A stretch of DNA of 64,000 bases, taken from contig MERI01000103.1 in the NCBI GenBank assembly GCA_001772005.1, positions 18,232 to 82,231 on the forward strand. The letters run 5' to 3'. The first letter of the stretch is position 1. Each line of letters opens with the position of its first letter. Below are positions 3-60,333 of this stretch, in pieces. The notes beneath the pieces were generated by a model. That model was not told where the DNA came from. It searched no databases and saw only the letters and a list, made by a program, of their open reading frames with translations. Source of the stretch: Betaproteobacteria bacterium RIFCSPLOWO2_12_FULL_62_58. Its GTDB lineage: Bacteria; Pseudomonadota; Gammaproteobacteria; Burkholderiales; SG8-41. The position numbers and the translations under genes were made by a program.

Positions 3-1553
3 GTGCGCGAGAAGGGCGGACGGCTGGTCGCGCTGTGGGGTGCCGACAATAGCGATCGGGGCGAGGCATTCGCCGTGCACGCGGCGCTGACGGTGCAGTC
101 GGGACTGCTGGTGGTGACGTTGCCGCTGGACGGCGCGGGCTTTCCCGACGTTTCCGACGTTTTTCCTGCGGCGAACCGGATGCAGCGTGCGGTCCACGAT
201 CTGTTCGGCGTGAGCGCCGAGAACGCGGCCGATCAGCGCAAGTGGCTGCGTCACGCCGCCTGGCCGGTGGACGTCTTTCCGTTGCGGAAAGACGTCGCTG
301 GCGGTTCAAAGTTCAAAGTTCAAAGTTCAGAGTTCAAAGTTCAGGGTTCCAAGTTGCAACCCGAAACTCAGAACATTGAACCCGGAACCCAGAACCTTGA
401 ACCTGGAACCTTGAACCTGGAACCTGGAACCGAACCAACGGACGACTATCCTTTCGTGCGCGTGGAAGGAGAAGGCGTGCATGAGATACCTGTGGGGCCG
501 GTGCACGCCGGCACCATCGAGCCGGGACATTTCCGTTTCTCCATCGTCGGCGAGGGCGTTCTGCGGCTGGAAGAGCGGCTCGGCTACAAGCACAAGGGCA
601 TCGAGAAGCGCTTCGAGTCGATGACGCTTGCCGAGGGCGCCAGGCTCGCCGGACGGGTGTCAGGCGATTCCACGGTGGCGTACGCCTGGGCCTATGCGAT
701 GGCGGTGGAAAGCGTGACCGGCGTGACGCCGCCGCCGCGCGCGCTGTGGCTTCGGGCGTTGCTGCTGGAACGCGAGCGGGTCGGGCAGCACCTGTGGGAC
801 TTGGGTTTCCTCGGGAACGATGCGGGACTCGCGTTCGGGCTGGCGCAGTTTTCGCGACTCAGGGAAGACTGGTTGCGTGTAAGCCACGCGTTGTTCGGCC
901 ACCGCTACCTGATGGACGCCATCGTGCCGGGCGGCGTTGCGCGGGACATCCACGCCGAAGGCATTGCCCGAATTCGGGGCGAAATCGACGGGATCGGCAA
1001 GACAGTCGTGCTGCTGAAGGACATCTACGATGAGCACGCCGGGCTGCAGGACCGCTTCATCGGCTGCGGGCGCGTCAAACCCGATCTCGCGGACCGGATG
1101 GGACTGACCGGACTGGCCGGTCGCGCAAGCGCGGTAGCGTGGGATCTGCGCGTGCAGTTCCCGCCGATCCCCTACGACGAGTTCGAAGTGCGCATGGCCA
1201 CGCACCGCAACGGTGACGTCGCGGCGCGCGTCACGGTGCGCTTTGAGGAGATCGCGGAGTCGCTGCGTCTGATCGGCCTGATCCTTTCCAGCCTGCCCAT
1301 AGGCGACATCGCTGCGCGCGTGCCGGATGCGCCCGAGAACGCATTCGGCATCGGCTGGGTGGAGGGCTGGCGCGGCGAAGTGCTGATTGCGCTGGAGACG
1401 GGTGCGAACAACAGCATCCGCCGGCTGCACCCGCACGATCCGTCGTGGCAGAACTGGCCGCTGCTCGAACGCGCGGTGCTGGGCAACATCGTGCCGGATT
1501 TTCCGCTGATCAACAAGTCATTCAACCTGTCGTATAGCGGGCAGGACTTATAG
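3..1553 (+). CDS. Hydrogenase-4/Ehr complex large subunit (HyfG/HycE-like, NuoC+NuoD architecture), probably 5'-truncated by the window edge; lacks Ni-binding cysteines
   Basis: GPVHAGTIEPGHFRF and LGYKHKGIEK motifs. RVSGDS replaces RxCxxC and DFPLINKSFNLSYSGQDL replaces DPCxxC. Contains a repeat-derived insertion at 304-430. Confidence 0.88.
   Translation: MREKGGRLVALWGADNSDRGEAFAVHAALTVQSGLLVVTLPLDGAGFPDVSDVFPAANRMQRAVHDLFGVSAENAADQRKWLRHAAWPVDVFPLRKDVAGGSKFKVQSSEFKVQGSKLQPETQNIEPGTQNLEPGTLNLEPGTEPTDDYPFVRVEGEGVHEIPVGPVHAGTIEPGHFRFSIVGEGVLRLEERLGYKHKGIEKRFESMTLAEGARLAGRVSGDSTVAYAWAYAMAVESVTGVTPPPRALWLRALLLERERVGQHLWDLGFLGNDAGLAFGLAQFSRLREDWLRVSHALFGHRYLMDAIVPGGVARDIHAEGIARIRGEIDGIGKTVVLLKDIYDEHAGLQDRFIGCGRVKPDLADRMGLTGLAGRASAVAWDLRVQFPPIPYDEFEVRMATHRNGDVAARVTVRFEEIAESLRLIGLILSSLPIGDIAARVPDAPENAFGIGWVEGWRGEVLIALETGANNSIRRLHPHDPSWQNWPLLERAVLGNIVPDFPLINKSFNLSYSGQDL
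304..430. repeat. Inverted heptamer tandem array (8x GTTCAAA-like, 10x CTGGAAC-like) in frame within the large-subunit gene
   Basis: Units read directly; central palindrome GTTGCAAC at 353-360. Confidence 0.92.
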
Positions 1554-1557
1554 AAGC

Positions 1558-1701
1558 GTGAACGAGTGAACGGGTGAACAAGTGAACGGGCCAGAAAAGC
1601 GCAATACCCTCTCTCCCGGTCTTCGGGGGAGAGCCTGCACAGTAGGCGAGGGGGCCGGGCAGGGTGAGGGGGCTCACTCGTTCACCCGTTCAGTCGTTCA
1701 C
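1558..1701. repeat. Inverted octamer array (GTGAACGR / YCGTTCAC) enclosing a CCCTCTC..GGGAGAG..GGGTGAGGG palindromic element
   Basis: 4 units at 1558-1589, 3-4 complementary units at 1671-1701, nested element at about 1607-1672. Confidence 0.85.
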
Positions 1702-1741
1702 CGAGCAATGTGTAAGTGGTTTGCATACCGAGAGAGATGGC

Positions 1742-2257
1742 ATGTATCAACTGCTTAAGCAAATCGCCGTCGTTGGCATCAAGACCGAGGCGCCGCCTGA
1801 AGCGGATGAGGCGCTGCGTGTCGCTGCGCAGCGCCTACAGGCGGAAATCCTCGGTCATTTCGTGGGGGCGCTGACGATCCGCCACGTCGACGCCGGTTCG
1901 TGCAACGGCTGCGAGTTGGAGATCAACGCGCTCAGCAACCCGTACTACAACCTCGAAGGGCTGGGGATCAAGTTCGTTGCCAGCCCGCGCCATGCGGATA
2001 TGCTGCTCGTCACCGGCCCGGTGTCACGCCACATGGAGGTGGCGCTCAAGCGCACCTACGACGCGACGCCGGATCCGAAGCTGGTGATCGCCATCGGCGA
2101 TTGCGGCTGCACCGGCGGGATCTTCGGCGAGAGCTACGCGAGTTGCGGGCGCGTTTCGAACTTGATTCCGGTGGATGTCGCGGTGCCGGGTTGCCCGCCC
2201 ACGCCAATCGCAATCATGCAGGGCATCCTCACGGCGATTGCCTTAAAAAAAGCTTAG
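1742..2257 (+). CDS. Hydrogenase-4/Ehr small subunit (NuoB/HycG/HyfI-like Fe-S protein)
   Basis: GSCNGCELE, ASPRHADMLLVTGPV, GDC, VPGCPPTP; ATG at 1742. Confidence 0.9.
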   Translation: MYQLLKQIAVVGIKTEAPPEADEALRVAAQRLQAEILGHFVGALTIRHVDAGSCNGCELEINALSNPYYNLEGLGIKFVASPRHADMLLVTGPVSRHMEVALKRTYDATPDPKLVIAIGDCGCTGGIFGESYASCGRVSNLIPVDVAVPGCPPTPIAIMQGILTAIALKKA

Positions 2258-2377
2258 CCGCCAAGGACGCTAAGGACGCAGAGGAAATACTGAAAAATAG
2301 CAAGAAGGAATCATGGATCGGTGACAGCCCTGCGAGTGGGGACCGGTTGGAGCGATGAGAGCTAGGCGGAGCGTCGA

Positions 2378-3235: not shown

Positions 3236-3414
3236 ATCGCCAGGACGCGAACTGATTAATCCGCGGTCATCGTTCGAGCCCAGCTTGGGCAGGCAATTAA
3301 GAGCAGAACTCGGTAACGGATTTCCCCTGATTTTGCTTTAAGCTGATATGCGGGCGTATTATCGTAACGGACGTATCCGTAGCCCGGTGTTACCGCGTAC
3401 GTAAAGCAAAGTTC

Positions 3415-11632: not shown

Positions 11633-12721
11633 ATGGCCATCACAGAGCAGCAGGTCCAGGACGCGCTGAAGCAACTGGTCGACCCGAACACCAGGAAGGA
11701 CTACGTCTCCACCAAGTCGGCGCGCAACATCAGGATCGACGGCGACAATGTGTCGGTGGATATCCTTTTGGGCTACCCGGCGAAGAGCCAGCTCGAGCCG
11801 ATCCGCAAGCAAGTCGTCGCCAAGCTGAAGACCATTCCCGGCATCGGCAACGTGGCCGTCAACATCTCGATGAAAATCGTCTCTCACGCCGTGCAGCGCG
11901 GCGTCAAGCTCGTCCCGGGGGTGAAGAACATCATCGCGATCGCCTCCGGCAAGGGCGGCGTGGGCAAGAGCACGACGGCGGTCAATCTCGCGCTTGCGCT
12001 CGCCGCCGAGGGCGCCAGTGTCGGGGTGCTGGACGCCGATATCTACGGCCCGTCACAGCCCATGATGCTGGGTATTACCGGCCGGCCCGAGTCGAAGGAC
12101 GGCAAGAGCCTGGAGCCGATGGAAGGCCACGGCTTGCAGGCGATGTCGATCGGCTTCCTGATCGACGTCGAGACACCCATGGTGTGGCGCGGCCCGATGG
12201 TGACCCAGGCGCTGGAGCAGCTCACGAATGAAACCAAGTGGCGGGACATCGACTACCTGGTAGTGGACCTGCCGCCGGGCACCGGTGATATCCAGTTGAC
12301 GCTCGCCCAGCGCGTGCCGGTGACCGGCGCCATCATTGTCACCACCCCCCAGGACATCGCGCTGATCGACGCCCGCAAGGGGCTCAAGATGTTCGAGAAA
12401 GTCGGCATCCCCATCCTCGGCATCGTCGAGAACATGAGTATCCATATCTGCTCCAAGTGCGGCCACGAGGAGCGCATTTTCGGCGAGGGCGGCGGGGAGC
12501 GCATGGGCAAGGACTACGACGTCGAACTCCTCGGCGCGCTGCCGCTCGACATCGGCATCCGCGAGCAGGCCGACTCCGGCAAACCGACCGTGGTGTCCGA
12601 CCCCGACGGCCGGGTGGCGCAAATCTACAAGCAGATCGCCCGGCGCGTGGCGGTGAAGATTGCCGAGAAGCAGCAGGACCATTCGGCGGCATTCCCCAAG
12701 ATCGTCGTCCAGAATACCTAG
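11633..12721 (+). CDS. apbC: Iron-sulfur cluster carrier ATPase Mrp/ApbC
   Basis: ASGKGGVGKST, DADIYGPS, DLPPGTGD, CSKC; divergent from metG. Confidence 0.95.
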   Translation: MAITEQQVQDALKQLVDPNTRKDYVSTKSARNIRIDGDNVSVDILLGYPAKSQLEPIRKQVVAKLKTIPGIGNVAVNISMKIVSHAVQRGVKLVPGVKNIIAIASGKGGVGKSTTAVNLALALAAEGASVGVLDADIYGPSQPMMLGITGRPESKDGKSLEPMEGHGLQAMSIGFLIDVETPMVWRGPMVTQALEQLTNETKWRDIDYLVVDLPPGTGDIQLTLAQRVPVTGAIIVTTPQDIALIDARKGLKMFEKVGIPILGIVENMSIHICSKCGHEERIFGEGGGERMGKDYDVELLGALPLDIGIREQADSGKPTVVSDPDGRVAQIYKQIARRVAVKIAEKQQDHSAAFPKIVVQNT

Positions 12722-12890
12722 GATTCAGGATCGAGGATTCAGGATCGAGGATTCAGGATCAAGGATCAAGGATTCAGGATCAAGGATTCAGGACTGAGGA
12801 AGGATTTGGGTTCCGCGGGCGCACCAAAGCGGCTTATAATCCAGAGCCAATCAAGCTTCCCTCAATCCTAATAACTCAATCCTCGATCCT
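12721..12890. repeat. Inverted heptamer array (11x GGATYVA / 4x TCRATCC) filling the apbC-dcd spacer
   Basis: Starts within the apbC stop codon and ends 3 bp before the dcd ATG; TATAAT at 12835-12840 lies between the arms. Confidence 0.92.
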
Positions 12891-12893
12891 GCG

Positions 12894-15072: not shown

Positions 15073-15615
15073 TCAAGCGGAGGCGCGGTCGTAAACCGCA
15101 AAGCGATAGTTGTAGCGGTGCGTGTCATCGGCCTCGAAAGCTTGTGCCGAAGTTTCGCGCCAGTCTGAAAGATCGAATTCCGGCATGTAGGTATCGCCGG
15201 CTGGTTCGGCATCGACCGTAGTCAGGTAGATGCGGTTGGCGAGGGGAAGCGCCGCTTTGTAGAGTTCGCCGCCACCGATCACGAAGACCTCGTCATCTCC
15301 GTTGCAGGCGGCGATCGCCGCTTCGAGCGAACGCGCGACCAGCGCACCCCGCACGCGATAACCGGCCTGGCGCGTGACGATCACCGTGGTCCGGCCGGGC
15401 AGAAGCCGCCCGATCGACTCATAAGTCTTGCGCCCCATGATGATGTGATGGCCCATGGTGAGGCGCTTGAACAGCTTCAGTTCGTTCGGCAGACGCCAGG
15501 GAATCGCGCCGTGCGCGCCGATCACGCGGTTTTTGGCCATCGCGACAATAATCGAGAGGCGAGAGGCGAGAGGCGAGAGGCGTAAAGAGGCCGCGCCCTG
15601 ATTAATGTTTGTCAC
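15073..15615 (-). CDS. folA: Dihydrofolate reductase with repeat-derived N-terminal extension
   Basis: IIVAMAKNRVIG..IPWRLP, IMGRKTYESIGR.LPGR, FVIGGG; directly downstream of thyA. Confidence 0.93.
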   Translation of the reverse strand: MTNINQGAASLRLSPLASRLSIIVAMAKNRVIGAHGAIPWRLPNELKLFKRLTMGHHIIMGRKTYESIGRLLPGRTTVIVTRQAGYRVRGALVARSLEAAIAACNGDDEVFVIGGGELYKAALPLANRIYLTTVDAEPAGDTYMPEFDLSDWRETSAQAFEADDTHRYNYRFAVYDRASA

Positions 15616-15656
15616 CTCGCTTTTGCTCCTCTCTCCTATCCCCTCTCTCCTCTCTC
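15553..15656. repeat. Inverted heptamer array (4x CGAGAGG / 4x CTCCTCT-like) at the thyA-folA junction
   Basis: Units read at 15553-15580 and 15626-15656. Confidence 0.8.
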
Positions 15657-16453: not shown

Positions 16454-16485
16454 TCAGGATTCAGGATCCGGGATTCAGGATTCAG
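16454..16485. repeat. Single-arm heptamer array (TCAGGAT x4) immediately upstream of thyA
   Basis: TCAGGAT TCAGGAT CCGGGAT TCAGGAT TCAG. Confidence 0.8.
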
Positions 16486-32259: not shown

Positions 32260-32264
32260 TTGCC

Positions 32265-32858: not shown

Positions 32859-32979
32859 TCATCCGGTCGCCGTAAGGCGCCGAAAGGTGCATGTCCGGCC
32901 GCGAATCTGAACCGTTGCTGGGGTGGGCAGGGCGTACGCAGCATTGCTCCCGCCGTGCACGCTGCATTAAGATGCCCAG

Positions 32980-35922: not shown

Positions 35923-36338
35923 TCACGCAAGCCCAGGCTGATCAGCTGATTGCTGCGTTGAAAGAGGCCGCTCGCAACGACCCTTTCATCTGGCAGGAAA
36001 ATTTGCGGCAGGACGAAATAGTTCTCGCGGTCGGCGATCGAAAACTCAAGTTCGTGCTGACGTTGAAGCGCAATTTGAATGAAATCAAGCTGCACATGCG
36101 CACACAGGATCGAAACATCGGATTAGCGCGAATCGATAACGCACCATATCACTGCAATCCGGATGGATCCGAGATCAGGAGCCAGCCTCATTTGCATCTT
36201 TACCGAGAGGGACATGAATTGGCATGGGCGGAGCCGATCGATTGGTGCGATTTGGGTCGTCCGTTGGATACGCTCGAAAAGTTCCTGAATATCATTAACA
36301 CTCGCTTCCGAGCGGGCTACTCGGTGTCTCTCATCTGA
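35919..36338 (+). CDS. DUF6978-like protein
   Basis: LARID...HCNPDG....PHLHLYREG...WA motif; ATGA overlap with mod. Confidence 0.7.
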   Translation: MITQAQADQLIAALKEAARNDPFIWQENLRQDEIVLAVGDRKLKFVLTLKRNLNEIKLHMRTQDRNIGLARIDNAPYHCNPDGSEIRSQPHLHLYREGHELAWAEPIDWCDLGRPLDTLEKFLNIINTRFRAGYSVSLI

Positions 36339-36340
36339 AT

Positions 36341-37150
36341 ATGGCCGCAATACTGAAACCTGACTTGGCCAAGGAGTACATCGACTGGCTGCGTGGGCGG
36401 GTTGTTTCTATCACCCGTGGTGAAACGCAAATACTCAGCACACCATTTCTCGATCCTTTCAACGATGGCATCAAGATTCATGTTGAGTCAAGAAACGGGG
36501 AGATTGTGCTTCATGACAACGGGGACACCTTAGACAATCTGTCCGCCTTGGGTGTAAAGATAGAAGAGTCTGAAAGAAGGAAGGCCCTAATCCAGCGCGC
36601 CACTGCAGGGTGCGCCGTAACGTTCAATGGGAGCCGCTTAGAGACTATTGCGACGCCGGCTAGTCTTCCGCAGAGAGCCCATTTTCTTATTACGGCAATC
36701 CTGCGGCTCAATGACCTTTGGATGAGCACCACTGGTCACCGTTGGGCCGACTTTTTCGAAGTTGTTGCGGAATTCTTGGAACAAAAGCAAGTTCTCTTTA
36801 CCCCGAATGTTTCCATACCAGGGCGCACGGTGGATCACAATATTGATCTGGTCATCCCGTTGCCGAAGCGCCGTGAGCGTTTGGTGAAATTGATCGGTGA
36901 TCCCAAACCTCAAACTGCCAAGGTGATCTCGTTTACGTGGATGGAATTGCAGGAGTCACGACCTGAAGCGGAACGCGTGGTCGTGCTTAATGATGTCTAT
37001 GCGCCGGATCCCCTGGAAGAGGAAAGCGAGCAGGAGTTCAAGCGAATCAGCGAGCAGACCATATCGATCCTCAGTGGCTACAGCAACGCAGTTTATAAGT
37101 GGAGCCAGCGTGGCCAACCTGAGTTCAGTGGGCTGTGGCAGCCAAATTGA
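36341..37150 (+). CDS. DUF1828/DUF1829-like protein
   Basis: STPFLDPFNDGI..LHDNGDTL in the N-terminus; FFEVVAEFL..NVSIPG..HNIDLVIP in the C-terminus. Confidence 0.75.
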   Translation: MAAILKPDLAKEYIDWLRGRVVSITRGETQILSTPFLDPFNDGIKIHVESRNGEIVLHDNGDTLDNLSALGVKIEESERRKALIQRATAGCAVTFNGSRLETIATPASLPQRAHFLITAILRLNDLWMSTTGHRWADFFEVVAEFLEQKQVLFTPNVSIPGRTVDHNIDLVIPLPKRRERLVKLIGDPKPQTAKVISFTWMELQESRPEAERVVVLNDVYAPDPLEEESEQEFKRISEQTISILSGYSNAVYKWSQRGQPEFSGLWQPN

Positions 37151-37161
37151 CAGGGTATGTG

Positions 37162-37365
37162 ATGTCAATCAGAGCGATGACACATCAGGAACGGGAGCAA
37201 GGTTACGCCGTGTGCGAGTGCGGGAGGTTTGCGCACATATGGCGCGCGAGCGTTTTGAGGCAGTTACCGCGTGACTATCACGGAGAGCTTTGCCCCGACT
37301 GCAGTCTTTGGATGTGCGCCGTTGAAAAACTGCGGGTAAGTCACAGTACGACTGCTCGCTCATGA
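37162..37365 (+). CDS. Small Cys-rich (Zn-ribbon-like) hypothetical protein
   Basis: CECG..CPDC; ATGA overlap with res; start uncertain. Confidence 0.35.
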   Translation: MSIRAMTHQEREQGYAVCECGRFAHIWRASVLRQLPRDYHGELCPDCSLWMCAVEKLRVSHSTTARS

Positions 37366-40300: not shown

Positions 40301-40469
40301 CATTGCTGAAACCAAGGGCTTTGACGAACTGGAAGAGGTGAAGCGGGAAGCGGCGGAACGGTGGGTGAACGCGGTCAACGTTGAGGGAAGTTTCGGTCGC
40401 TGGCGCTACAGGGTCGCGAAGCAGGTCTCCGACATTTCGCGCCTGATATCTTCCGCCGCCGGGGCTTGA
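37362..40469 (+). CDS. res: Type III-like restriction subunit (SF2 helicase + PD-(D/E)XK nuclease)
   Basis: MATGSGKS, LNDEAHH, FSATP, MLTEGWD, QVVGRGLR, YIPDF..AETKG. Confidence 0.9.
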   Translation: MSNFEVTEPILNSPFEEPREHWWILEGEVPERRPGRRFAHYFYRDPRSATKESAETDVGTMIELKGVTRIRERLAAWRAAGYPGASRTTLELLAYWSREGRKHPLFFAQREAAETVIFLTEARADFRQGIDIPRDEPSPDKKAEGYAGFLRYACKMATGSGKSTVMAMLAAWSILNKQADRSDARFSDVVLIVCPNVTIRDRLRELDPETGDASVYRTRDLLPAHLMPLIVNGKVFVTNWHVFEPQTPQVAGDSAKVIRAGVPERRVETIIIGEKTTTARGKRYLTQSDFERQVAAGLVTVIEEDRDKTGNLVKARVESVRYLESDTALVDRVLGREIGGKRNLLVLNDEAHHAYRIRREEPDEDEDEDEDDDLDEFYREATVWIDGLDKVQKQRGINFCVDFSATPYYLGRVGQETNRPFPWVVSDFGLIDAIESGLVKIPQLAVRDTTGSSIPGYFNIWQWILPQLTTSERGGKKAAPKPEAILKYAHTPIAMLAGLWEEEWRRRQSDDEDKRPPVFIIVCKNTQVARVLYEWIAEDKPPQGIPHSKIASFRNANGEINTIRVDSKVVAETDTGEAKSDESRWMRFTLDTVGKTVWPTDTLGRPVYPEGFEALTEKLGRPMYPPGRDVRCIVSVGMLTEGWDCNTVMHIVGLRPFMSQLLCEQVVGRGLRRTRYELNDDGKFSEETAKVFGVPFQIIPFKANPGGVAPPPAKRWHVRALPAKAIYEIRFPRVEGYTQAIRNRIAVNWESIPRITVNPQKIPPEVQLGRLLPSATGRLSVLGPGRSEEATLDPYRAQRRLQELKFDLAQALVRDCVQSRRCEVPAHALFPQLLGVVERYLREKVVVQAPADLRDVFLAPYYTWVVERLTDAIAPDTAAGEAPEMPRYESRRGAGSTAEVDFWTSREPREVVRSHVNFMVPDTKKWEQSAAYLIDTHPATQAFVKNAGLGFAIPYVHNGQTHEYIPDFIIRLKGDSDQYLIAETKGFDELEEVKREAAERWVNAVNVEGSFGRWRYRVAKQVSDISRLISSAAGA

Positions 40470-43237: not shown

Positions 43238-43875
43238 TGGAGAAATTTGTACGCAAGGAAGGGCTGGTGGCGCCGCTCGACCGCGCGAATGTCGATACCG
43301 ACTCGGTGATTCCGAAGCAATTCCTGAAGTCGATCCAGCGCACCGGCTTCGGCCCCAACCTCTTCGATGAGTGGCGCTATCTCGACCACGGCGAGCCGGG
43401 GGCAGACAACTCGAAGCGTCCGCTCAATCCCGATTTCGTGCTCAACCAGGAGCGCTACCGCGGCGCGACCGTGCTGCTCACACGCGAGAACTTCGGCTGC
43501 GGCTCGTCGCGCGAGCACGCGCCGTGGGCACTCTTGCAGTATGGTTTCCAGGCGGTCATTGCGCCAAGCTTCGCCGACATCTTTTACAACAACTCGTTCA
43601 AGAATGGTCTGCTGCTGATCAAGCTCGATCCGAAGATCGTCGATCGACTATTCCGCGAAGTGCAAGCCGCGCCAGGCTACCGGCTGGCGGTCGATCTCGA
43701 GGCGCAGACGGTCACCGCGCCAGGCGGTGAAACTTTCAGGTTCGACATCGATCCGTTCCGCAAGCACTGCCTGCTGAACGGGCTGGACGAAATCGGGCTT
43801 ACGCTTGAGCGCGCCGACAAGATCAGGACGTTCGAGGCGAAGCACCGCGGCGAACAGCCATGGCTGTTTAACTAG
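43237..43875 (+). CDS. leuD: 3-isopropylmalate dehydratase small subunit
   Basis: [28 protein letters not shown]. Confidence 0.97.
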
Positions 43876-43961
43876 GATTGAGGATCAAGGATCGAGGATC
43901 GAGGTGCAAATCTCAGCGCCTTGGCGGTTCCCTCAATCCTGAATCCTCAATCCTCGATCCT
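43875..43961. repeat. Inverted heptamer array (4x GGATYRA / 4x TSRATCC) between leuD and leuB
   Basis: Begins in the leuD stop codon; same unit family as 12721-12890. Confidence 0.9.
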
Positions 43962-43971
43962 GGAATCGAAG

Positions 43972-45036
43972 ATGAAGATCGCAGTGCTGGCCGGCGACGG
44001 CATCGGCCCTGAAATCGTCGGGCAGGCCCTCAAGGTGCTGAAGGCGCTGGCACGGGACGGGCTGAAGATTGAACTCGAGGAAGCGCCTTTCGGCGGCGCG
44101 GGCTTTGATGCGCACGGTGACCCGTTGCCGGAGCCGACTCTGAAGCTGGCGCGCGTGGCCGATGCGGTGCTGTGCGGCGCAGTCGGCGGCCCCAAATATG
44201 ATGTGCTGCCACGCGCAAAGCGCCCTGAGCAAGGAATACTCCGGATCCGCAAAGAGTTGGGGCTCTTCGCGAATCTACGTCCGGCAGTGCTGTATCCGGA
44301 ACTCGTTGGCGCTTCCACGCTCAAGCCCGAAGTGGTGTCGGGGCTGGACCTGATGATCGTGCGCGAACTCACCGGCGATATTTATTTCGGCGAGCCGCGC
44401 GGGCGGCGCAACAATGCGCGGGGCGAGCGCGAGGGCTTCGATACCATGCTTTATTCGGAGCCGGAGATCCGCAGAATCGCCGAGATCGGCTTTCAGGCCG
44501 CGCTGAAACGCGGGAAGAAGCTCTGCTCGGTTGACAAGGAGAACGTGCTCGAAACGAGCCGCCTGTGGCGCGAAGTGGTGAGCGACGTGGCGAAGAAATA
44601 TCCCCAGGTCACGCTTGCCCACATGTACGTGGATAACGCCGCGATGCAGCTCGTGCGCAAACCGAAGCAGTTCGACGTAGTCGTGACCGGCAACATGTTC
44701 GGGGACATCCTTTCCGACGAGGCCTCGATGCTGACGGGCTCGATCGGCATGCTGCCTTCGGCTTCTCTCGATGCGCAGGCCAAGGGCCTCTATGAGCCGA
44801 TTCACGGTTCGGCGCCGGACATCGCCGGCAGGAACGTGGCGAATCCGCTGGCGACGATCCTGTCGTCAGCCATGATGCTGCGTTACACGTTTAATCAGGA
44901 TGAATGGGCGTACCGCATCGAGAGGGCCGTGAAAGACGTCCTGGCCCAAGGCTACCGCACGGCGGACATCCATGAGCCAGGGACCCGCAAGGTCGGCACA
45001 AAAGAAATGGGTGACGCGGTGGTTGCCGCGCTGTGA
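43972..45036 (+). CDS. leuB: 3-isopropylmalate dehydrogenase
   Basis: [42 protein letters not shown]. Confidence 0.97.
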
Positions 45037-45037
45037 G

Positions 45038-45128
45038 GGGTGATGGGTGATGAGTAATGGGTGATGGGCGACGAAACCTGCGAAAAAAGGACCTTATCCC
45101 ATGACCCATCACTCATTACCCATTACCA
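45038..45128. repeat. Inverted heptamer array (GGGTGAT / ATCACCC-like) between leuB and asd
   Basis: 5 units at 45038-45072 and 5 complementary units at 45094-45128. Confidence 0.88.
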
Positions 45129-46367: not shown

Positions 46368-47420
46368 GTGAGCAAACCTATTGACAAGCGATGGCTCTGG
46401 GCGATGTTGTTGATGCTGGCGTCTTCGGTAGCGAGCGCAGTCGGAATGGGTAGGCTGACTGTTCTGTCGTCGCTGGGCCAGCCGCTCAACGCGGAAGTCG
46501 ACCTGGTATCGGTGCAGAAAGAGGAACTCGCCACGCTCTCGGCGCGCCTGGCATCGCCCGATGCATACCGGCAGGCCAATCTTCAGTACGGCGCCGCAGC
46601 GGCGGGCATGCGCTTCAGGATTGAAAAGCGACCCGGCGGCCAGCTCTATATCAAGATCACATCGGTGCGATCGGTTGACGAGCCATTCGTGAATCTGCTG
46701 ATCGAGTTGACTTGGGCGTCCGGGCGCCTCGTGCGGGAGTATACGGCGCTCATCGATCCGCCCGACTATACGCCGCCCCAATCGGTTGCGTCTGCGCCGG
46801 CTCCCGCGCCAGAGACGCGTCCGGTGCCAGTGCCCCAGCCGACGGTCGCGGTGGCCGCGCCCGCATCGGCAAGACCGGCCGCCGGCGGCGAGTATGGACC
46901 GATCAAGCGCGGCGAGACGCTGTCGAAGATCGCCGCCAGCGTGAAGCCGGAAGGTGTTTCCCTGGAGCGGATGCTGGTGGGTATTCTTCGCAGCAATCCC
47001 GATGCTTTTGTGAACAACAACATGAATCGCATGAAAGCCGGCAAGATGCTGCGCATTCCGGACAAGGAACAACTGACCGCAATGCCGCAAGCCGACGCCG
47101 TAAAGGAAGTCCGGGTGCAGGCAGCGGATTGGAAGAGGTATCGCCGGAAACTGGCCGATACGGCCGGCACGGTATCCGAAAGGAAAACCGCAGCGAGCAG
47201 GCGTGACAAGGTGAGCGTAAAAGACAAAACGGCGGATGGGAAACCCGTATTGCGCCTTTCAAGTGGTGAACCCCCGGGCGGCGCGGGCGCGAAGGGGCGC
47301 AGCAAGGCGGACCGTGTCCAGGCGCTGGAAGAAGAACTCATCGCGCGCGAGCGGGCCCTGAAGGAAGCCAACGAGCGGATCAAGGAGCTTGAAAAGGCGG
47401 TCAAGGAGTCCGCCAAATAA
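46368..47420 (+). CDS. Short FimV-like protein (periplasmic N-terminal/LysM region only)
   Basis: Signal peptide, GRLTVLSSLGQPLNAE, GRLVREYT.LIDPP, GETLSKIA, NPDAF; no TM or C-terminal domain. Confidence 0.82.
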   Translation: MSKPIDKRWLWAMLLMLASSVASAVGMGRLTVLSSLGQPLNAEVDLVSVQKEELATLSARLASPDAYRQANLQYGAAAAGMRFRIEKRPGGQLYIKITSVRSVDEPFVNLLIELTWASGRLVREYTALIDPPDYTPPQSVASAPAPAPETRPVPVPQPTVAVAAPASARPAAGGEYGPIKRGETLSKIAASVKPEGVSLERMLVGILRSNPDAFVNNNMNRMKAGKMLRIPDKEQLTAMPQADAVKEVRVQAADWKRYRRKLADTAGTVSERKTAASRRDKVSVKDKTADGKPVLRLSSGEPPGGAGAKGRSKADRVQALEEELIARERALKEANERIKELEKAVKESAK

Positions 47421-47561
47421 CCGGCACCGACTGCTGAAATTTCATTAAAAATAGCAAATTAGCCAGAAACATCAGAGTCAATATTAGCTTGCATCGCTAA
47501 CTGGCTGATGTTATTTTAGTTGTCCGGGTGTTCCCCACAAAATATCCATAGGGGTGGCGTT

Positions 47562-49865
47562 GTGCGCGATTTCACTCTAAAAAAATGGCTATTAGCGGTG
47601 TTGCTGCTGACGCCATGGATTGCCAGCGCAGCCGGATTGGGGAGGCTCACTGTTCTGTCGACGCTGGGTCAGCCGTTCAACGCGGAAATTGATCTGGTAT
47701 CGGTGCAGAAGGAGGACCTCTCCTCGCTTTCAGTGCGTCTGGCATCGTTCGACGCGTATCGGCAGGCCAATCTTCAATACAGCGCCGTGGTTGCGGGGCT
47801 GCGTTTAAGGGTTGAAACGCGACCCAACGGCCAGCCTTATGTCAAAGTCACATCAGAGCGAGCGGTCAATGACCCGTTCGTCGATCTGCTGATCGAATTG
47901 AATTGGGCCTCCGGGCGTCTCATGCGCGAATATACGGCGCTCATCGATCCGCCCGGCGTGGCTCCGGTCCAGGCAACCGCACCGGCACCGGTGGCGGTTC
48001 CCGAACCCGGTCCCGCGCCCGCGCCGCAGCCTGCTGCAGCGCGGCCGATTGACGGGTCCGAGGTCGCGGCCGGCGGTTACGGCCCGATTCAGCGCGGTGA
48101 GACGCTTTCCAAGATCGCGCGCAGCCTGAAGCCCGAAGACGTGACGCTCGAGCAGATGCTGGTCGGGCTCTTTCGCAGCAATCCGGACGCTTTCATCAGG
48201 AAGAACATGAACCTTGTCAGGAGCGGCAAGATCCTGCGCGTGCCTGAGAGAACGGAAGTTGCCGCGATTCCGCAGCAGGAAGCGGTGAAGGAATATCGCG
48301 CGCAAGTCGCGGACTGGAATGCCTATCGCGGGAAGCTCGCTGATGCGGCCGGCATCGCGGCGGAAGCGCGTACGGCGGCAAGCGGCCGGATCACGACCCG
48401 AATCGAAGACAAGGCAACTGCTGAAGCAAAAGACGTTGTGCGGCTTTCCAAGAGCGAAGCGCTGGGCGACGCCGCCGGCGCGGGGAAAGGCGGCAAGCCA
48501 CGCAGCACGGCTGATCGCATCCGTTCGCTCGAAGAAGAAGTGACCGCGCGCGAGAAAGCGCTGACCGAAGCCAACGAACGCATCGCGCTGCTCGAGAAGA
48601 CGATCAAGGACATGCAGCGGCTGGCCGAGATCAAGAGTCCGGGCATGGCGGCGGCACAGCAGCAGGCTGAGACCAAAGCAGCGCCCAAGCCGGAGGCCGC
48701 GAAACCCGAGGCAAAACCAGAAGCCGCCAAACCCGCGCCGGCTGAAAAACCGGTGGTGGAAGCCAAAGCCGAACAGCCAAAACCGAAACCCAAGCCGAAA
48801 GTAGCGCCGCCTCCACCGCCGCCCGAACCCGACCTGATCGAGACCTTGTTGAGCGATCCGCTCTACCTGGGTGCGGGTGGTGGCGTGCTGGTGCTGGCCG
48901 GCCTGGGTTTCTGGCTCTCGCGCCGTCGCCGCGCTCAGCCGGCAGCGGACAGTGAAAAAGTAAAGGTCGCTCCGACGCTGGGGACAACAGCCACCGCTGC
49001 GTCCGCGGGTTCAGCGGCTTTAGCGGCACCCGCAGTGGCTGCGGCCGCGGCAGCGGCAGACGTGGACCCGATGGACGAGGCCAGAGTCTATCTTTCCCAC
49101 GGCCGCGATGCGCAGGCTGAAGCGACCCTGAAAGAGGCGGTGGCCAAGAATCCCCGTCGGCACGACATTCAAGTCACGCTGCTTGAAATTTATGCTGCAC
49201 GCAAGGACAAAGCGGCGTTTGCCAAGCAGGCGGGCGAGTTTCACAATGTGTCCGGAGACCAGGCCGAGAGTTGGCTCAAGGTCGCAGCGATGGGCTATGC
49301 GATCGATCCCGGCAATTCGCTGTATGCGGCGGGCAAGGATGCCCCGAGCGCGGCGCCGCCCGCAGCCGAAGCGCCGGCGGTCGATCTCGATTTCAACCTC
49401 GACGCTGCCGCCCCGAGCGACACTGCCGCCAGTGCGACCGATGCCGGCGCCGGCTTCAAGATCGAAATCCCGCCCGCCGAACCGGAAATGAAGCCCGACA
49501 TTGCGCATGGCGCGCACGAATCCGTGCCTGCCGCCTTGGATTTCAACCTCGAACTGCCCAAGGTTGACGTGCCGCAGGCGGGCGCGCCAGCGCAGCCGAA
49601 GCAGGAGCAGGGCGCGGACGTCGATTTCAAGCTCGATTTTGGCAGTGTTAACCTCAACCTCGATGACAAACAGCCGGCTGGCGCCGCGTCGCGCGGCGAC
49701 AAGGACGCCCACTGGTACGACGTCCAGCAAAAGTTCGATCTGGCCAAGGTGTATCAGGAGATGGGGGAAAAAAACAACGCCGTGGAAATTCTGGAGGAAG
49801 TGATGAAAGAGGGCGACGCCGAACAGCGGGCCCAGGCGAAGGCGCTGCTGGATACCCTGGGCTAG
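47562..49865 (+). CDS. fimV: FimV/HubP polar landmark protein
   Basis: FimV N-terminus, LysM-like motif, coiled coil, TM, TPR-like region, C-terminal KFDLAKVYQEMG; located between asd and truA. Confidence 0.9.
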   Translation: MRDFTLKKWLLAVLLLTPWIASAAGLGRLTVLSTLGQPFNAEIDLVSVQKEDLSSLSVRLASFDAYRQANLQYSAVVAGLRLRVETRPNGQPYVKVTSERAVNDPFVDLLIELNWASGRLMREYTALIDPPGVAPVQATAPAPVAVPEPGPAPAPQPAAARPIDGSEVAAGGYGPIQRGETLSKIARSLKPEDVTLEQMLVGLFRSNPDAFIRKNMNLVRSGKILRVPERTEVAAIPQQEAVKEYRAQVADWNAYRGKLADAAGIAAEARTAASGRITTRIEDKATAEAKDVVRLSKSEALGDAAGAGKGGKPRSTADRIRSLEEEVTAREKALTEANERIALLEKTIKDMQRLAEIKSPGMAAAQQQAETKAAPKPEAAKPEAKPEAAKPAPAEKPVVEAKAEQPKPKPKPKVAPPPPPPEPDLIETLLSDPLYLGAGGGVLVLAGLGFWLSRRRRAQPAADSEKVKVAPTLGTTATAASAGSAALAAPAVAAAAAAADVDPMDEARVYLSHGRDAQAEATLKEAVAKNPRRHDIQVTLLEIYAARKDKAAFAKQAGEFHNVSGDQAESWLKVAAMGYAIDPGNSLYAAGKDAPSAAPPAAEAPAVDLDFNLDAAAPSDTAASATDAGAGFKIEIPPAEPEMKPDIAHGAHESVPAALDFNLELPKVDVPQAGAPAQPKQEQGADVDFKLDFGSVNLNLDDKQPAGAASRGDKDAHWYDVQQKFDLAKVYQEMGEKNNAVEILEEVMKEGDAEQRAQAKALLDTLG

Positions 49866-52619: not shown

Positions 52620-52621
<2 letters not shown>

Positions 52622-52701
52622 CGATGAACGCGGAACGCGGAACGATGAACAGAATGGTCGAACAAAGCTTGTTCATCGCTCATCGTTCATCGCTCATCGT
52701 T
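52620..52701. repeat. Inverted heptamer array (AACGATG/AACGCGG and GYTCATC) between trpB and trpA
   Basis: Begins in the trpB stop codon; 4+4 units. Confidence 0.88.
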
Positions 52702-54391: not shown

Positions 54392-54394
54392 AGT

Positions 54395-54541
54395 TCCGCG
54401 TTCCGGGTTTGGTGTTCCAGGTTCCGAGTTCCAAGTTCCAAATTCGGTGCCCCCGGTTCCTGGTTCACAGTTGCAAACCCTGAACCCTGAACCCTGAACC
54501 CTGAACGTTGAACCTTGAACGTTGAACCTTGAACCTTGAAC
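54395..54541. repeat. Inverted heptamer array (GTTCCRN / CYTGAAC) between accD and folC
   Basis: About 11+10 units around a GTTGCAAAC centre; same family as 304-430. Confidence 0.92.
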
Positions 54542-55816
54542 CGCAAACCCGTAACGCTAGAGCAGTGGCTGGAATACATCGAGCGCTCGCATCCCCAGAC
54601 CATAGCCATGGGGCTGGAGCGCGTCGCCAAGGTGAGGGACGCGCTCAAACTGACGCCGGCTTTTCCCGTCATCACGGTCGGCGGCACCAATGGCAAAGGC
54701 TCGGCGTGCGCGATGCTCGAGGCGATCCTGTGCCATGCCGGCTATACAGTGGGTTGCTACACTTCGCCGCACCTGCTGCGTTACAACGAGCGCGTGAGGA
54801 TAGCCCGGCGTGAGGCAAGCGACGTGCAACTCGAGCGCGCGTTCGCCGCCGTCAACGAAGCGCGCGCTACGACACAGCTCACTTATTTCGAATTCGGCAC
54901 GCTGGCGGCAGCCTGGCTGTTTGTAGAGGAGCGAGTCGATGTTGCCGTACTCGAAGTCGGGCTCGGGGGCCGGCTCGATGCCGTCAATCTGTTCGACACC
55001 GATTGCGCGCTGGTGATGAGCATCGCGCTCGATCATATGAATTACCTGGGCACGACGCGCGAGCAGATCGGTTACGAAAAAGCCGGAATTTTCCGCCCGG
55101 GCCGGCCGGCGATCTGCGCCGATCGTGATATGCCTGAAAGCGTTCGTCGTCATGCCGGGGAAATCGGCGCGGGGCTGCTGGTGATCGGCGCTGATTTTGG
55201 TTTCGTGCCCGACAAGGCGCAGTGGCAGTACTGGGGGCCGCATCGCAAGAAAACCGGCTTGCCGTACCCGGCGCTGCGCGGTGCTTATCAACTTGCCAAC
55301 GCCAGTGCGTGCCTCACGGCGCTTGACGCGCTGCGCGACCGCTTGCCGGTGACGATGAACGATATCCGTAGCGGCCTGCTGCAAGCGGAAAATCCGGGCC
55401 GCTTTCAGGTGCTGCCGGGACGGCCGGCAGTCATCCTCGACGTCGCGCACAACCCGCATGCGGCTGCGGCGCTGGCGGATAATCTCGCGCAGATGGGACC
55501 GTGTCGGCATACGATCGCGGTGTTCGCAATGCTGCGGGACAAGGACATCGCTGGTGTCGTCAATGCCGTCAGAGCCCGCATCGATCACTGGTTTGTCGCC
55601 GGCATCAACTCGCCGCGCGGCGCGGACGCTGAACTCCTGGTCCAGACGCTGCGCGCGGCCGGTGCGGAGGCGCCGGTCACGCGCTGCGGCAGCGTCGCCG
55701 CCGCCTACGCGCAAGCCTGTGATACGGCGACGGAAAATGATAGAATTTTGGTTTTCGGATCGTTTTACACGGTGGCTGCGGTGATGCAGGTGCGCACCAC
55801 GCGGAAGACCTCGTGA
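54536..55816 (+). CDS. folC: Bifunctional folylpolyglutamate/dihydrofolate synthase
   Basis: GGTNGKGS, YTSPHL..YNER, EVGLGGRLDA, DVAHNP, FGSF; TTG start lies inside the repeat. Confidence 0.95.
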   Translation: MNRKPVTLEQWLEYIERSHPQTIAMGLERVAKVRDALKLTPAFPVITVGGTNGKGSACAMLEAILCHAGYTVGCYTSPHLLRYNERVRIARREASDVQLERAFAAVNEARATTQLTYFEFGTLAAAWLFVEERVDVAVLEVGLGGRLDAVNLFDTDCALVMSIALDHMNYLGTTREQIGYEKAGIFRPGRPAICADRDMPESVRRHAGEIGAGLLVIGADFGFVPDKAQWQYWGPHRKKTGLPYPALRGAYQLANASACLTALDALRDRLPVTMNDIRSGLLQAENPGRFQVLPGRPAVILDVAHNPHAAAALADNLAQMGPCRHTIAVFAMLRDKDIAGVVNAVRARIDHWFVAGINSPRGADAELLVQTLRAAGAEAPVTRCGSVAAAYAQACDTATENDRILVFGSFYTVAAVMQVRTTRKTS

Positions 55817-58507: not shown

Positions 58508-58565
58508 CGGCTCTCGCCGACCGCATCTCTGCCCTCTCGTCGCCTGTGGTCTGTCGCCTGTCGTC

Positions 58566-58594
58566 TTGACATTCGCCCGGCCCAAGAGTAGTTT
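58566..58594 (+). promoter_or_regulatory. Sigma70-like promoter of the metZ leader
   Basis: TTGACA-17 bp-TAGTTT just upstream of the riboswitch; preceded by a degenerate CTGTCGY heptamer arm. Confidence 0.65.
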
Positions 58595-58600
58595 CCCCAA

Positions 58601-58655
58601 TGCGCCGATTTGATGATCAGCTTGCGGGCGCGTAAAAAATACGGCTAAAGCGAGG
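58601..58655 (+). ncRNA. SAM-II-class riboswitch
   Basis: GCGCCGATTTGA..GCTTGCGGGCGC..AAATACGGCTAAAG fits the SAM-II pseudoknot pattern; upstream of a Met biosynthesis gene. Confidence 0.85.
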
Positions 58656-58657
58656 GC

Positions 58658-58694
58658 AAACCCGTTTTTAGCGAGAGCTGAAACGGGTTTTTTA
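58658..58694 (+). terminator. Leader terminator downstream of the SAM aptamer
   Basis: AAACCCGTTTTTAGC-GAGA-GCTGAAACGGGTTTTTT. Confidence 0.8.
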
Positions 58695-58719
58695 TTTTCG
58701 ACAACCGATGGCGAGGAGT

Positions 58720-59895
58720 ATGGCTGAAAACTACAGACTTGAAACCCTGGCGGTGCGCGCCGGCATCGAGCGCAGCCAGTTCGGCGAGCATTCCGAGGCG
58801 CTGTATCTCACTTCGAGCTTCGTGTTCAAGTCGGCGGCGCAGGCCGCGGCGCGCTTCGCCAACCAGGAACCGGGCAACATTTATGCGCGCTTCACCAACC
58901 CGACGGTGACCGTGTTCGAGCAGCGGCTCGCCGCGCTCGAAGGCGCGGAGTGTTGCATTGCGACCTCATCTGGAATGGCCGCCATCCTGTCATGTGTGAT
59001 GGGGATGCTCAAGGCGGGCGATCATATCGTGTGTTCATCCGGCGTGTTCGGCGCCACCGTGCAGCTGCTGGGCAACATCATGAAGCGTTTCGGCGTCGAT
59101 ACGACATTCGTTTCGGGAACCGAGGTCGCCAAGTGGCAGGCGGCGGTAAAGCCGAGTACGCGGATGCTGTATCTCGAGACGCCGTCCAATCCGCTGACCG
59201 AGGTCTACGACATCGTGGCGCTCGCCGCGGTTGCGAAAAAGGCGGGCGTGCTGCTGGTGGTGGACAACTGTTTTTGCACGCCGGTGCTGCAGCGGCCGCT
59301 TGATCTTGGCGCCGATATCGTGATCCATTCGGCCACCAAGTATCTCGACGGGCAGGGCAGGGTGCTGGGCGGCGCGGTTCTCGGCCAAAAGAGCGTGATC
59401 TATGAGGGCGTATTCGGGTTTCTGCGCACCGCTGGTCCCACTTTGAGTCCGTTCAACGCCTGGGTGATTCTGAAAGGGCTGGAAACACTGCAGCTGCGCC
59501 TGGAGGCGCAATCGGCGCGCGCGCTGGAGCTTGCGCGCTGGCTCGAAGCTCAGCCGGGGATCGAGCGCGTCCACTATCCGGGGTTGCCGTCGCACCCGCA
59601 GTACGAACTCGCCCGACGGCAGCAGAAAGGCCCCGGGGCGATCGTGTCGTTCGACGTGAAAGGCGGCAAAGAGGCGGCGTGGCGCATCGTCGACAATACC
59701 CGGCTGATTTCGATTACGGCCAACCTTGGCGATACCAAGACCACGATCACCCATCCGGCATCGACCACCCACGGCCGCATCTCTCCTGAGGCGCGTGCTG
59801 CGGCGGGCATCGGCGACGGTTTACTTCGGATTGCCGTGGGTTTGGAGAATATCGAGGACATCAAAGCAGATCTGGCGCGGGGACTGGCGACGTGA
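58720..59895 (+). CDS. metZ: O-succinylhomoserine sulfhydrylase
   Basis: EHSEALYLTSSF, YARFTNPT, HSATKYLDGQGR, NLGDTKTTITHP; GAGGAG RBS before ATG 58720. Confidence 0.94.
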   Translation: MAENYRLETLAVRAGIERSQFGEHSEALYLTSSFVFKSAAQAAARFANQEPGNIYARFTNPTVTVFEQRLAALEGAECCIATSSGMAAILSCVMGMLKAGDHIVCSSGVFGATVQLLGNIMKRFGVDTTFVSGTEVAKWQAAVKPSTRMLYLETPSNPLTEVYDIVALAAVAKKAGVLLVVDNCFCTPVLQRPLDLGADIVIHSATKYLDGQGRVLGGAVLGQKSVIYEGVFGFLRTAGPTLSPFNAWVILKGLETLQLRLEAQSARALELARWLEAQPGIERVHYPGLPSHPQYELARRQQKGPGAIVSFDVKGGKEAAWRIVDNTRLISITANLGDTKTTITHPASTTHGRISPEARAAAGIGDGLLRIAVGLENIEDIKADLARGLAT

Positions 59896-59958
59896 GGCGG
59901 GAAATCGGGAGAGCGTGAGCGGGAAGCGGATTTCTGTTGTGAGTTTTGATCTTACGAC

Positions 59959-60333
59959 TCACGGCATTTCAAACCGGGAGGGAGCTCCCGCGGTGTAACT
60001 ATGCCAAAGGCCGACAAGGGACTGCAGGACCGCCCCGAAAGCGAAAATCAGCATCGGCCGCAACCGCACCAGAAAAGACTCGAAAGCATTGGAGCCCAGA
60101 CGCGCATTAATGGCCTGAGCAAGCTTCGGGTGGTAGAAGGGAGAATGCCGCATCCAAAACGACGCAACCCCGAAGACCAGCACGGGAAGCAGAATGATAG
60201 TGGCAATGGTCAGCGGAGGCATGTCCCCCGAAAACGGAGCCTCTGAAGCTGGCAAATGCATGGCGCCATAGATAGAGGTCCAAATTGCGAGGACCCAGAT
60301 CGCGGCGATGATAAAACCGGAGTCGGATGGCAT
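59959..60333 (-). CDS. Hypothetical membrane protein (probable gene cassette, possibly 3'-truncated)
   Basis: Three hydrophobic segments; ATG 8 bp after an attC core. Confidence 0.55.
   Translation of the reverse strand: MPSDSGFIIAAIWVLAIWTSIYGAMHLPASEAPFSGDMPPLTIATIILLPVLVFGVASFWMRHSPFYHPKLAQAINARLGSNAFESFLVRLRPMLIFAFGAVLQSLVGLWHSYTAGAPSRFEMP

Follow-up and report, generated by a model that had tools for sequence, protein, structure and literature searches.

Inverted heptamer arrays at operon junctions of a betaproteobacterial genome as probable arms of foldback elements that carry a four-helix-bundle gene

The closest described counterpart of the sequences reported here is an intervening sequence (IVS) of the 23S rRNA gene. 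In Coxiella, according to Warrier et al. 2016 (PMC4990558), the IVS forms a stem-loop whose terminal stem measures 28 bp and which contains an S23p open reading frame (ORF). Two or three copies of the tandem heptamer GACAGAT, depending on the strain, lie upstream of that ORF, and RNase III cleaves within the stem where the first repeat begins. The same text quotes older proposals that IVS are mobile elements or remnants thereof, and its authors judged S23p dispensable. Here we describe inverted tandem arrays of 7- and 8-bp units at gene junctions of a 64,000-nt stretch of DNA from Betaproteobacteria bacterium RIFCSPLOWO2_12_FULL_62_58 (assembly GCA_001772005.1, contig MERI01000103.1, positions 18,232 to 82,231; hereafter the window), and their association with genes of the PF05635 (23S_rRNA_IVP) family, which encode four-helix-bundle (4HB) proteins. 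The window belongs to contig C103 in the metagenome-assembled genome (MAG) of an uncultured betaproteobacterium (5.88 Mb, 277 contigs, 61.8% G+C), called G000 below.

Cyanobacteria carry short tandemly repeated repetitive (STRR) sequences, which are intergenic tandem heptamers with one or few canonical units, described almost entirely in direct orientation. Repetitive extragenic palindromic (REP) sequences, bacterial interspersed mosaic elements (BIMEs), MITEs (miniature inverted-repeat transposable elements) and foldback transposons are dispersed intergenic palindromic elements, and the foldback elements of eukaryotes have long inverted arms of short tandem repeats and a variable, sometimes coding centre. 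In Xanthomonas, GGGAATC forms about 186 arrays per genome, 89-93% of them intergenic and with 70-75 inverted pairs, which were read as G-quadruplex formers (Rehm et al. 2015; PMC4692102); S23p has 0 occurrences in the main text of that paper, and a table of its supplement places a GGGAATC array over the start of XCC0516, a crystallised 4HB homologue. Paired heptanucleotide sites on opposite strands were described in the Geobacter metallireducens genome (PMC2700814), and TAACTGA in Beggiatoaceae forms 169 direct sets and one inverted set in the Guaymas genome, in a paper that holds no four-helix or S23 term (MacGregor 2015; PMC4679880). Within the literature covered, with preprint supplements and subscription journals outside the scope, no paper states a general link between 4HB genes and heptamer arrays, the only case being the single Coxiella IVS.

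Arrays and 4HB genes are associated with each other by locus, by genome and by orthologous junction, and the hairpins of the window are kin to 4HB-bearing foldback elements. We consider it probable, at roughly two chances in three, that the window arrays represent arms of foldback insertion elements, a family whose full form carries one small PF05635/TIGR02436 gene in the loop, in a design like that of the IVS. All window copies are gene-less, in the sense that no PF05635 ORF was found in the window.

At the level of the locus, array pairs with long loops in G000 revealed small ORFs, and a PF05635 profile search of this genome gave nine matches (E = 3e-39 to 2e-13), all nine lying between tandem arrays, eight of them inverted with period 7 or 8 and one direct with period 13. 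The G000 proteins match TIGR02436, 'four helix bundle protein', with 107-125 bits (cut-off 24), and more weakly Avd of diversity-generating retroelements (DGRs); among solved structures, the nearest is that of XCC0516 from Xanthomonas campestris (PDB 2GSC, five chains; E = 4.6e-22). Flanking arrays were present at 30 of 30 PF05635 loci returned from relatives and at all 20 loci taken from 17 genomes that belong to other families, including single-copy genomes with few arrays. By an automated test, at least one array was found at 55 of 55 loci, and both arms were complementary within 2 mismatches at 38 of them. A metagenome scan added 80 loci of 30-70% G+C, 68 of them with both flanks, among which 48 showed an inverted pair, 3 had arrays to the left and right that did not match, 14 were flanked by an array on one side and 3 lacked arrays, so that 65 of the 68 had at least one flanking array; the periods of the 178 arrays in these flanks were 7 (135 arrays), 8 (15) and 14 (8), with every other period in at most 3. 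All the 4HB loci examined, as well as all window loci, lie between protein-coding genes and not inside the 23S rRNA gene.

These genes encode conserved proteins under purifying selection, with dN/dS of 0.10-0.29 in the five of nine pairs for which it was measurable, and pN well below pS in all nine. Although the arms are symmetric, 25 of the 26 4HB genes that stand between co-directional host genes point along the host genes, a count in which some loci are orthologous, so that the number of independent cases is lower. The one 4HB gene of G000 with direct arrays (C106:2020-2800) is flanked by period-13 repeats (GGTGATGA plus 5 nt), and the same genome holds 43 period-13 arrays.

The distribution of arrays and of PF05635 among genomes nearly coincides, even within one genus. 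In 31 related genomes, compared for four copies of a GTGAN3 pattern and for PF05635, all 15 with the gene hold such arrays (4 to 410 matches), and 14 of the 16 without it lack them, including the congeners G001, G005 and G007. An even sample of 300 genomes across the class gave at least 10 matches in 11 genomes, and PF05635 was present in 9 of these 11 versus 44 of the 289 others; the nine array-rich genomes with the gene belong to nine different families. An unpublished genome, G014, enters the junction, tree and count tables, and two more (G145 and G067) enter the class-sample counts only; publication of these data needs the permission of the depositors. Reverse transcriptase, considered as a co-varying factor for the kinship with Avd, was rejected on a small sample, with PF00078 matches of 0 in the array-rich G004, 1 each in the array-free G005 and G007, 0 in G001, 1 in G008 and 8 in G000.

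The junctions of the window were also compared by eye in 20 relatives. They hold arrays with the same or different units, or plain short junctions, those free of arrays being stop/start overlaps of 0-15 nt. Arrays were found at trpB-trpA in 11 of 19 relatives, with several different units, and in none of the other 8; at leuD-leuB in 6 of 14; at accD-folC in 6 of 19, a GTTC-type family being common to G004, G003, G010, G011 and G013; and at leuB-asd in 5 of 17, where G004 has the same unit family as G000. The presence/absence polymorphism for which the preliminary description had proposed to look at leuD-leuB, trpB-trpA and accD-folC is thus common. Cargo between the arms, sought there as well, was also found: leuD-leuB, gene-less in G000 (GGATTGA/GGATCGA), holds a PF05635 gene between AGGATTG arms in G011, and folA-thyA, a gene-less hairpin in G000, holds a 4HB gene between GGATTGA arms in G016.

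When the flanks of 24 4HB loci of relatives were mapped onto G000, 14 mapped to eight junctions, and 10 remained unmapped (one flank only, different contigs, inconsistent order or no match). All eight junctions hold array hairpins in G000, six of them gene-less, one with a decayed 4HB gene (C267:2315-2861, remnant at C267:2420-2711, with GAGAGGC arms as in G006) and one, read as rfbB-rfbA, with other cargo beside GGTGATG/GGTAATG arms. The names pth-ychF, ruvA-ruvB, yebC-ruvC and rfbB-rfbA, and that of a pyruvate-dehydrogenase-like junction, are a reading of the flanks, those of leuD-leuB and folA-thyA being firmer. The window arrays had been proposed to be empty sites of an insertion system that drops cargo between operon genes; the cargo part of this proposal holds, while the window hairpins are better described as element arms that lost, or never held, a gene than as empty sites. 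The truly empty junctions in relatives are 0-15-nt overlaps without arrays. At the junction read as rfbB-rfbA (C82:10900-12800, locus L181), where relatives carry a 4HB gene, the G000 cargo is a two-gene cassette which by eye resembles a PIN-domain toxin and a Phd/YefM-like antitoxin.

The window arrays are real and belong to a genome-wide family. Tandem Repeats Finder (TRF), used for periods 7 and 8 in the window, called all the 7-8-mer loci listed in the preliminary description except 59892-59963, and RNA folding predicted long hairpins at eight window loci (z from -2.3 to -7.9 versus dinucleotide shuffles). The scan of the whole genome that had been suggested (TRF, at least 3.5 copies) revealed 633 arrays of period 7 and 190 of period 8, with at most 72 for any other period. 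The 20 longest contigs (1.43 Mb) had 198 arrays of period 7 versus 8 in a first-order Markov control, and 53 versus 3 of period 8. After merging, around 980 period-7/8 arrays remained, and for 512 of them an inverted partner lay no more than 700 nt away; when a subsample was tested against a control, 151 of 250 real units had a partner, versus 7 of 250 reversed units. The inverted hairpin loci of G000 number about 342 in total, their median loop is 37 nt long, and at least 67 unit families were distinguished among the 208 strictest pairs.

Unit and gene also co-vary. Well-supported clades in the tree built from 36 4HB proteins have a unit in common despite different junctions and genomes: AGGATCA, GAGGATT, AGGATTG and GGATTGA fall together, as do GTTCCAA, GTTCCGC and GTTCAAA, GAGAGCG octamers form another clade, and the two GAACGAT copies are both on contig C183, separated by 4 kb. 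Over 48 loci, the Spearman correlation between unit distance and protein identity was -0.19, a value reached by 4 of 2000 permutations, and pairs at a unit distance of at most 1 had a mean identity of 0.48, reached by none of 2000. Such a correlation would be expected from common descent of entire elements as well as from specific recognition.

The placement of the arrays was studied with crude tests of the flanking frames rather than with a gene caller, and simple ORF calls of this kind miscall some genes, thyA among them. Only 110 of the 980 array midpoints fall in ORF interiors, although these make up 79% of the genome. It had been noticed that several arrays start exactly in the upstream stop codon, and this holds genome-wide: at 181 of 270 gene ends entering a hairpin, the first in-frame stop lies between -11 and +10 nt from the array start. 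By direct reading, most window arrays begin in the upstream stop codon, and the second arm stops a few bases before the next start. The absence of arrays from the accessory islands, also noticed before, was consistent with the calls, since none of at least 3 copies was found at 3.4-6.3 kb (low-GC, T5orf172), 18.6-29.6 kb (peptidase/ABC) or 32-40 kb (methylase/DUF). Across the genome, 5-kb segments with a GC below 0.59 hold 0.13-0.22 arrays, versus 0.85-1.06 at a GC of 0.59-0.65, so arrays are about 5-fold rarer in low-GC segments.

Each array has a purine-rich strand, with a mean of 73% purine and a value of at least 0.7 in 70% of the arrays versus 2.2% of random 35-nt segments. The hairpins run from a 5' purine arm through the loop to a 3' pyrimidine arm in 294 of 299 cases in G000 and in 43 of 51 metagenome pairs (an exception is G210, CGTCCCT and CGAGGGA). 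This polarity is identical on both strands and independent of gene direction; the idea that transcription sets it was rejected, as it is strand-symmetric and also found in 28 of 28 convergent and 12 of 12 divergent hairpins. GTGA occurs in 365 of the 980 units and TGA in 518, and a stop triplet is present in 612 units in the purine orientation versus 87 in the opposite one. One subfamily, with octamer or heptamer arms (GTGAACGR, GTGAAAC), comprises 39 hairpins with a conserved REP-like palindromic core in either orientation, and a second octamer subfamily comprises 19; elsewhere the loops are mostly unique. The core, CCCCTCACCC..CCCTCTCCCC-loop-GGGGAGAGGG, lies at 1591-1673 in the window and at 38 other loci of G000, and by itself counts as a dispersed element.

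The hairpins could instead be mRNA elements of benefit to the host, selected as stabilisers or as processing or coupling devices, in which the 4HB genes merely lodge. When both flanks are coding, 174 of 214 hairpins (81%) stand between co-directional genes, 28 between convergent and 12 between divergent ones, versus a baseline of 68%, 16% and 16% among adjacent gene pairs, so that divergent spacers are depleted. The arms abut stop and start codons, their folds are strong, and sense RNA is slightly more stable than antisense (-48.3 versus -47.3 kcal/mol, 101 versus 73 loci, p = 0.04); at trpB-trpA the ancestral overlap, TGAnnATG or TGATG, has been retained at the stem's right base, so that coupling could be preserved. 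Such a function is nevertheless unlikely, given that the congeners G001 and G007 have the same operons with plain 3-15-nt junctions and no arrays in either genome, and that units and copy numbers vary freely between relatives. Mirrored compensation between the arms was also absent, since among 140 hairpins the real unit order paired better than shuffled order in 53 and worse in 63 (p = 0.69), which, with the nearly equal folding of both strands, indicates that complementarity is kept per unit and not per base pair.

A proposal that binds the arrays to DNA rather than to transcription, as G-quadruplexes, cruciforms or binding arrays of global regulators, would account for the strand symmetry of the purine-first polarity, in G000 as in the metagenome pairs, and has published precedents in the Xanthomonas GGGAATC arrays (PMC4692102) and the paired Geobacter heptanucleotides (PMC2700814). 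We find it improbable, as most units (GTGAACG, GGATTCA, AACGATG, GTTCAAA) have no G-runs, so that a G-quadruplex cannot be general, GGGAATC is absent from G000, and the co-orientation of the 4HB genes with host transcription points to an RNA or expression dimension. Finally, heptamer slippage may have expanded around ordinary intergenic palindromes as a mutational by-product, with the 4HB link incidental, and slippage as a property of the polymerase is cited as a hypothesis for the heptamer excess in PMC4692102. Slippage does leave its marks here. The preliminary description had held that units vary at fixed positions, and this is mildly supported (62% of the variant cells lie in the two most variable columns, versus 54% expected), but its argument that such positions speak against slippage fails: of the 2107 variant cells, 1443 are recurrent in their own array, and TRF also reports higher-order periods of 14 and 21, which fits arrays growing by duplication of already-variant units. 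As a full account, however, we hold slippage around palindromes to be highly improbable, in view of the all-or-none distribution among congeners that tracks PF05635, the gene found between arrays at nearly every locus across very different GC contents, the co-variation of unit and clade, and the scarcity of arrays in the low-GC stretches of G000.

If the arrays are arms of foldback elements, these would enter or arise at operon stop/start junctions and be transcribed with the host genes, and their predicted RNA stems of 30-45 bp would juxtapose the upstream stop and the downstream start at the stem base. By analogy with the S23p-bearing IVS of 23S rRNA, the stems would probably be cut by RNase III, which would make the elements tolerable passengers rather than host regulators. 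Slippage would then lengthen, shorten and diversify the arms, and frequent loss of the gene would leave short-loop hairpins like those of the window.

Several observations weigh against this reading. Arrays occur without a PF05635 match in two relatives (55 matches in G015, one array in G029) and in two genomes of the class sample (126 matches in G246, 12 in G212), so arrays can persist without the gene; moreover, most genomes compared are MAGs, in which repeats are often unassembled, and the relatives are not independent samples. Units differ at the orthologous folA-thyA, ruvA-ruvB and pth-ychF, and as they agree at other mapped junctions, turnover of the units or re-use of the sites by re-insertion is required. 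Only two 4HB remnants were found among the approximately 342 hairpins, the one at C267:2420-2711 and a truncated copy at C27:19930, so for most gene-less copies descent from a gene-bearing one is not demonstrable, and insertion of a 4HB gene into pre-existing hairpin loops fits the same data. By eye, the relatives' junctions showed no clean target-site duplication (trpB-trpA, where the insert has a stop codon on either side, is suggestive of one, a pattern not consistently seen at leuD-leuB), and no transposase or other known mobility function was associated with the elements. As for the RNA-level steps, the advantage of the sense strand is only marginal and the arms lack mirrored compensation.

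A further-reaching reading, which we put forward tentatively and hold to be rather doubtful, is that the 4HB protein is the specificity factor of a new selfish element, each lineage recognising its own heptamer as RNA or DNA, possibly with one unit per subunit of the pentamer, and helping foldback arrays to be copied, inserted or maintained at gene junctions. If true, this would give one cause to the 23S IVS, the S23p family and the heptamer excess represented by STRR, GGGAATC and TAACTGA. The association itself joins three puzzles, namely the over-representation of heptamers among the long simple repeats of many bacteria, the role of the 4HB/S23p genes and the origin of the 23S IVS. Should the link hold, there would be hundreds of insertions per genome in essential operons (leu, trp, accD-folC, thyA-folA), which should affect mRNA processing and translational coupling, and the 4HB family, including Avd of DGRs, would gain a testable nucleic-acid target.

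The features of the window are collected in Table 1. They accompany a conserved block, leuC-leuD-leuB-asd-fimV-truA-(trpF)-trpB-trpA-accD-folC-dedD-cvpA-purF-metZ, and further apbC-dcd, folA-thyA and hydrogenase/complex-I-like genes. The unit family of the first hairpin is common to the accD-folC locus and to a 4HB element on contig C217 of G000, and the octamer hairpin belongs to the 39-locus cluster with similar loops. No Rfam family matches any window array, and direct reading of the window loci, with no terminator scan run, showed right arms leading into spacers or start codons without the T-run of an intrinsic terminator.

Table 1. Arrays and hairpins of the window, with arms as called by TRF unless marked, and predicted folds (kcal/mol, z).
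Feature	Position	Strand	Arms and loop	Setting	Fold	Call
Hairpin	304..431		left GTTCAAA x7.4 (304-355), loop, right GAACCTK x7.7 (378-431)	between two hydrogenase/complex-I-like subunit genes; NuoD-like domain begins near 483	-45.7, z -4.56	TRF
Octamer hairpin	1558..1702		GTGAACGR x4 (1558-1590), 83-nt loop with REP-like palindromic core (CCCTCTCYCC..GGGGAGAG plus GGGTGAGGGG), TCACCCGT x3.6 (1674-1702)	between NuoD-like and NuoB-like genes	-82.3, z -7.74	TRF
Hairpin	12720..12893		left AGGATYS x10.6 (12720-12793); right degenerate (about 12860-12893)	left arm begins in apbC stop TAG; right arm ends at dcd start codon (12894)	z -2.34	left arm TRF, right arm direct reading
thyA/folA hairpin	15553..15656	-	purine arm AGAGGAG (15656-15626), pyrimidine arm (15582-15553)	both genes on - strand; purine arm begins in thyA stop	-48.5, z -3.97	TRF
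Solo array	16454..16485	+	TCAGGAT x4.6, no inverted partner	just upstream of thyA start, divergent thyA/pepA spacer		TRF, single arm
leuD-leuB hairpin	43874..43961	+	GGATYRA x4.4 (43874-43904), 26-nt loop, CCTCAAT-type arm (43931-43961)	from leuD stop TAG	-44.1, z -5.49	TRF
leuB-asd hairpin	45033..45127	+	GGGTGAT-type arm (45033-45068), loop, CCCATYA arm (45098-45127)	from leuB stop TGA	-50.5, z -7.89	TRF
trpB-trpA hairpin	52620..52701	+	AACGATG/AACGCGG (52620-52650), loop, GTTCATC/GCTCATC (52671-52701)	from trpB stop TAA; right arm followed by TAGAT, then trpA ATG	-32.5, z -4.29	TRF
accD-folC hairpin	54393..54542	+	GTTCCRR arm (54393-54445), loop, AACCYTG x9.6 (54476-54542)	left arm past accD stop	-51.2, z -3.68	TRF
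Weak solo array	58539..58566	+	pyrimidine-rich GTCGYCT x4, no partner	30 nt past purF stop, upstream of SAM-II riboswitch		TRF, single arm
Weak one-armed octamer-like run	59892..59963	+	GGGAGAGC/GTGAGCGG type	begins in metZ stop		no TRF call

The sole Rfam match of the window is a SAM-II riboswitch (SAM_alpha, RF00521) at 58592-58665 on the + strand, with 36.1 bits versus a gathering score of 36, which lies upstream of metZ (O-succinylhomoserine sulfhydrylase) and is kept in most relatives' purF-metZ spacers. Two adjacent genes of the FimV/HubP family follow asd (46368-47420 and 47520-49865), the first without the C-terminal FimV domain. The array-free low-GC island at 32256-40469 encodes a pRiA4 ORF3-like protein, a 980-aa N6/N4 DNA methylase, DUF6978 and DUF1828 proteins and a 1035-aa protein without a Pfam match, and is probably a restriction or defence island.

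In practical terms, the arrays mislead ORF callers, as frames stay open through them, and can break assemblies. The ORF 3..1553 spans the array pair at 304-431 and the folC ORF (54536-55816) begins inside the right arm, so that automatic annotation is likely to add array-encoded N-terminal extensions. In other MAGs, several contigs begin or end inside long heptamer arrays (loci L048 and L053 on Gallionella MAG contigs; contig ends of G017 and G015), so that in those cases short-read assemblies break at the arrays; of the 554 contig ends of G000, a single one lies inside an array.

Compared with known dispersed repeats, the elements differ from MITE families, which have fixed terminal inverted repeats, in that the arm unit changes from locus to locus and most loops are unique. 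A conserved sequence is present in the 39- and 19-member octamer clusters, with a REP-like core in the former, and is lacking in most heptamer hairpins. With STRR they share abundant intergenic heptamers near gene ends and a patchy distribution suggesting horizontal spread; the comparison with STRR made in the preliminary description thus stands as regards intergenic heptamer arrays, and otherwise does not, the host being a betaproteobacterial MAG and the units being different. The same likeness extends to the TAACTGA repeats of Beggiatoaceae, which differ in being described as nearly all direct, with one or few fixed units (PMC4679880). The GGGAATC arrays of Xanthomonas and GGGGAYT of Nostoc are likewise intergenic inverted heptamers near ORFs, mostly between co-directional and seldom between divergent genes, and in Xanthomonas array length and sequence vary between close relatives (PMC4692102). 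Xanthomonas, however, has one G-rich unit per genome in that account, whereas G000 has its many unit families, most without G-runs, and an explicit tie of the arrays to the 4HB gene. GGGAATC had no match in G000, and the pattern was found in none of 301 class-sample genomes, none of which is Xanthomonas-like, so that the link to Xanthomonas comes solely from the supplement of PMC4692102.

The S23p IVS of Coxiella burnetii and Leptospira, as described in PMC4990558, are found in helix 25 or 45 of 23S rRNA, while the elements of G000 stand at protein-gene junctions, occur by the hundred in a genome, mostly lack an ORF and draw on dozens of different units, with stems that here are predicted. Unlike the S23p of Coxiella, which was judged dispensable, the 4HB ORFs studied here are under purifying selection. 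Both have a sporadic distribution, which suggests a selfish or horizontally moving element. Both also place a PF05635-family ORF in the loop of a long inverted-repeat stem, and the tandem purine-rich heptamers in the 5' part of the Coxiella IVS have their counterpart in elements of the G000 type, in whose metagenome flanks period 7 predominates.

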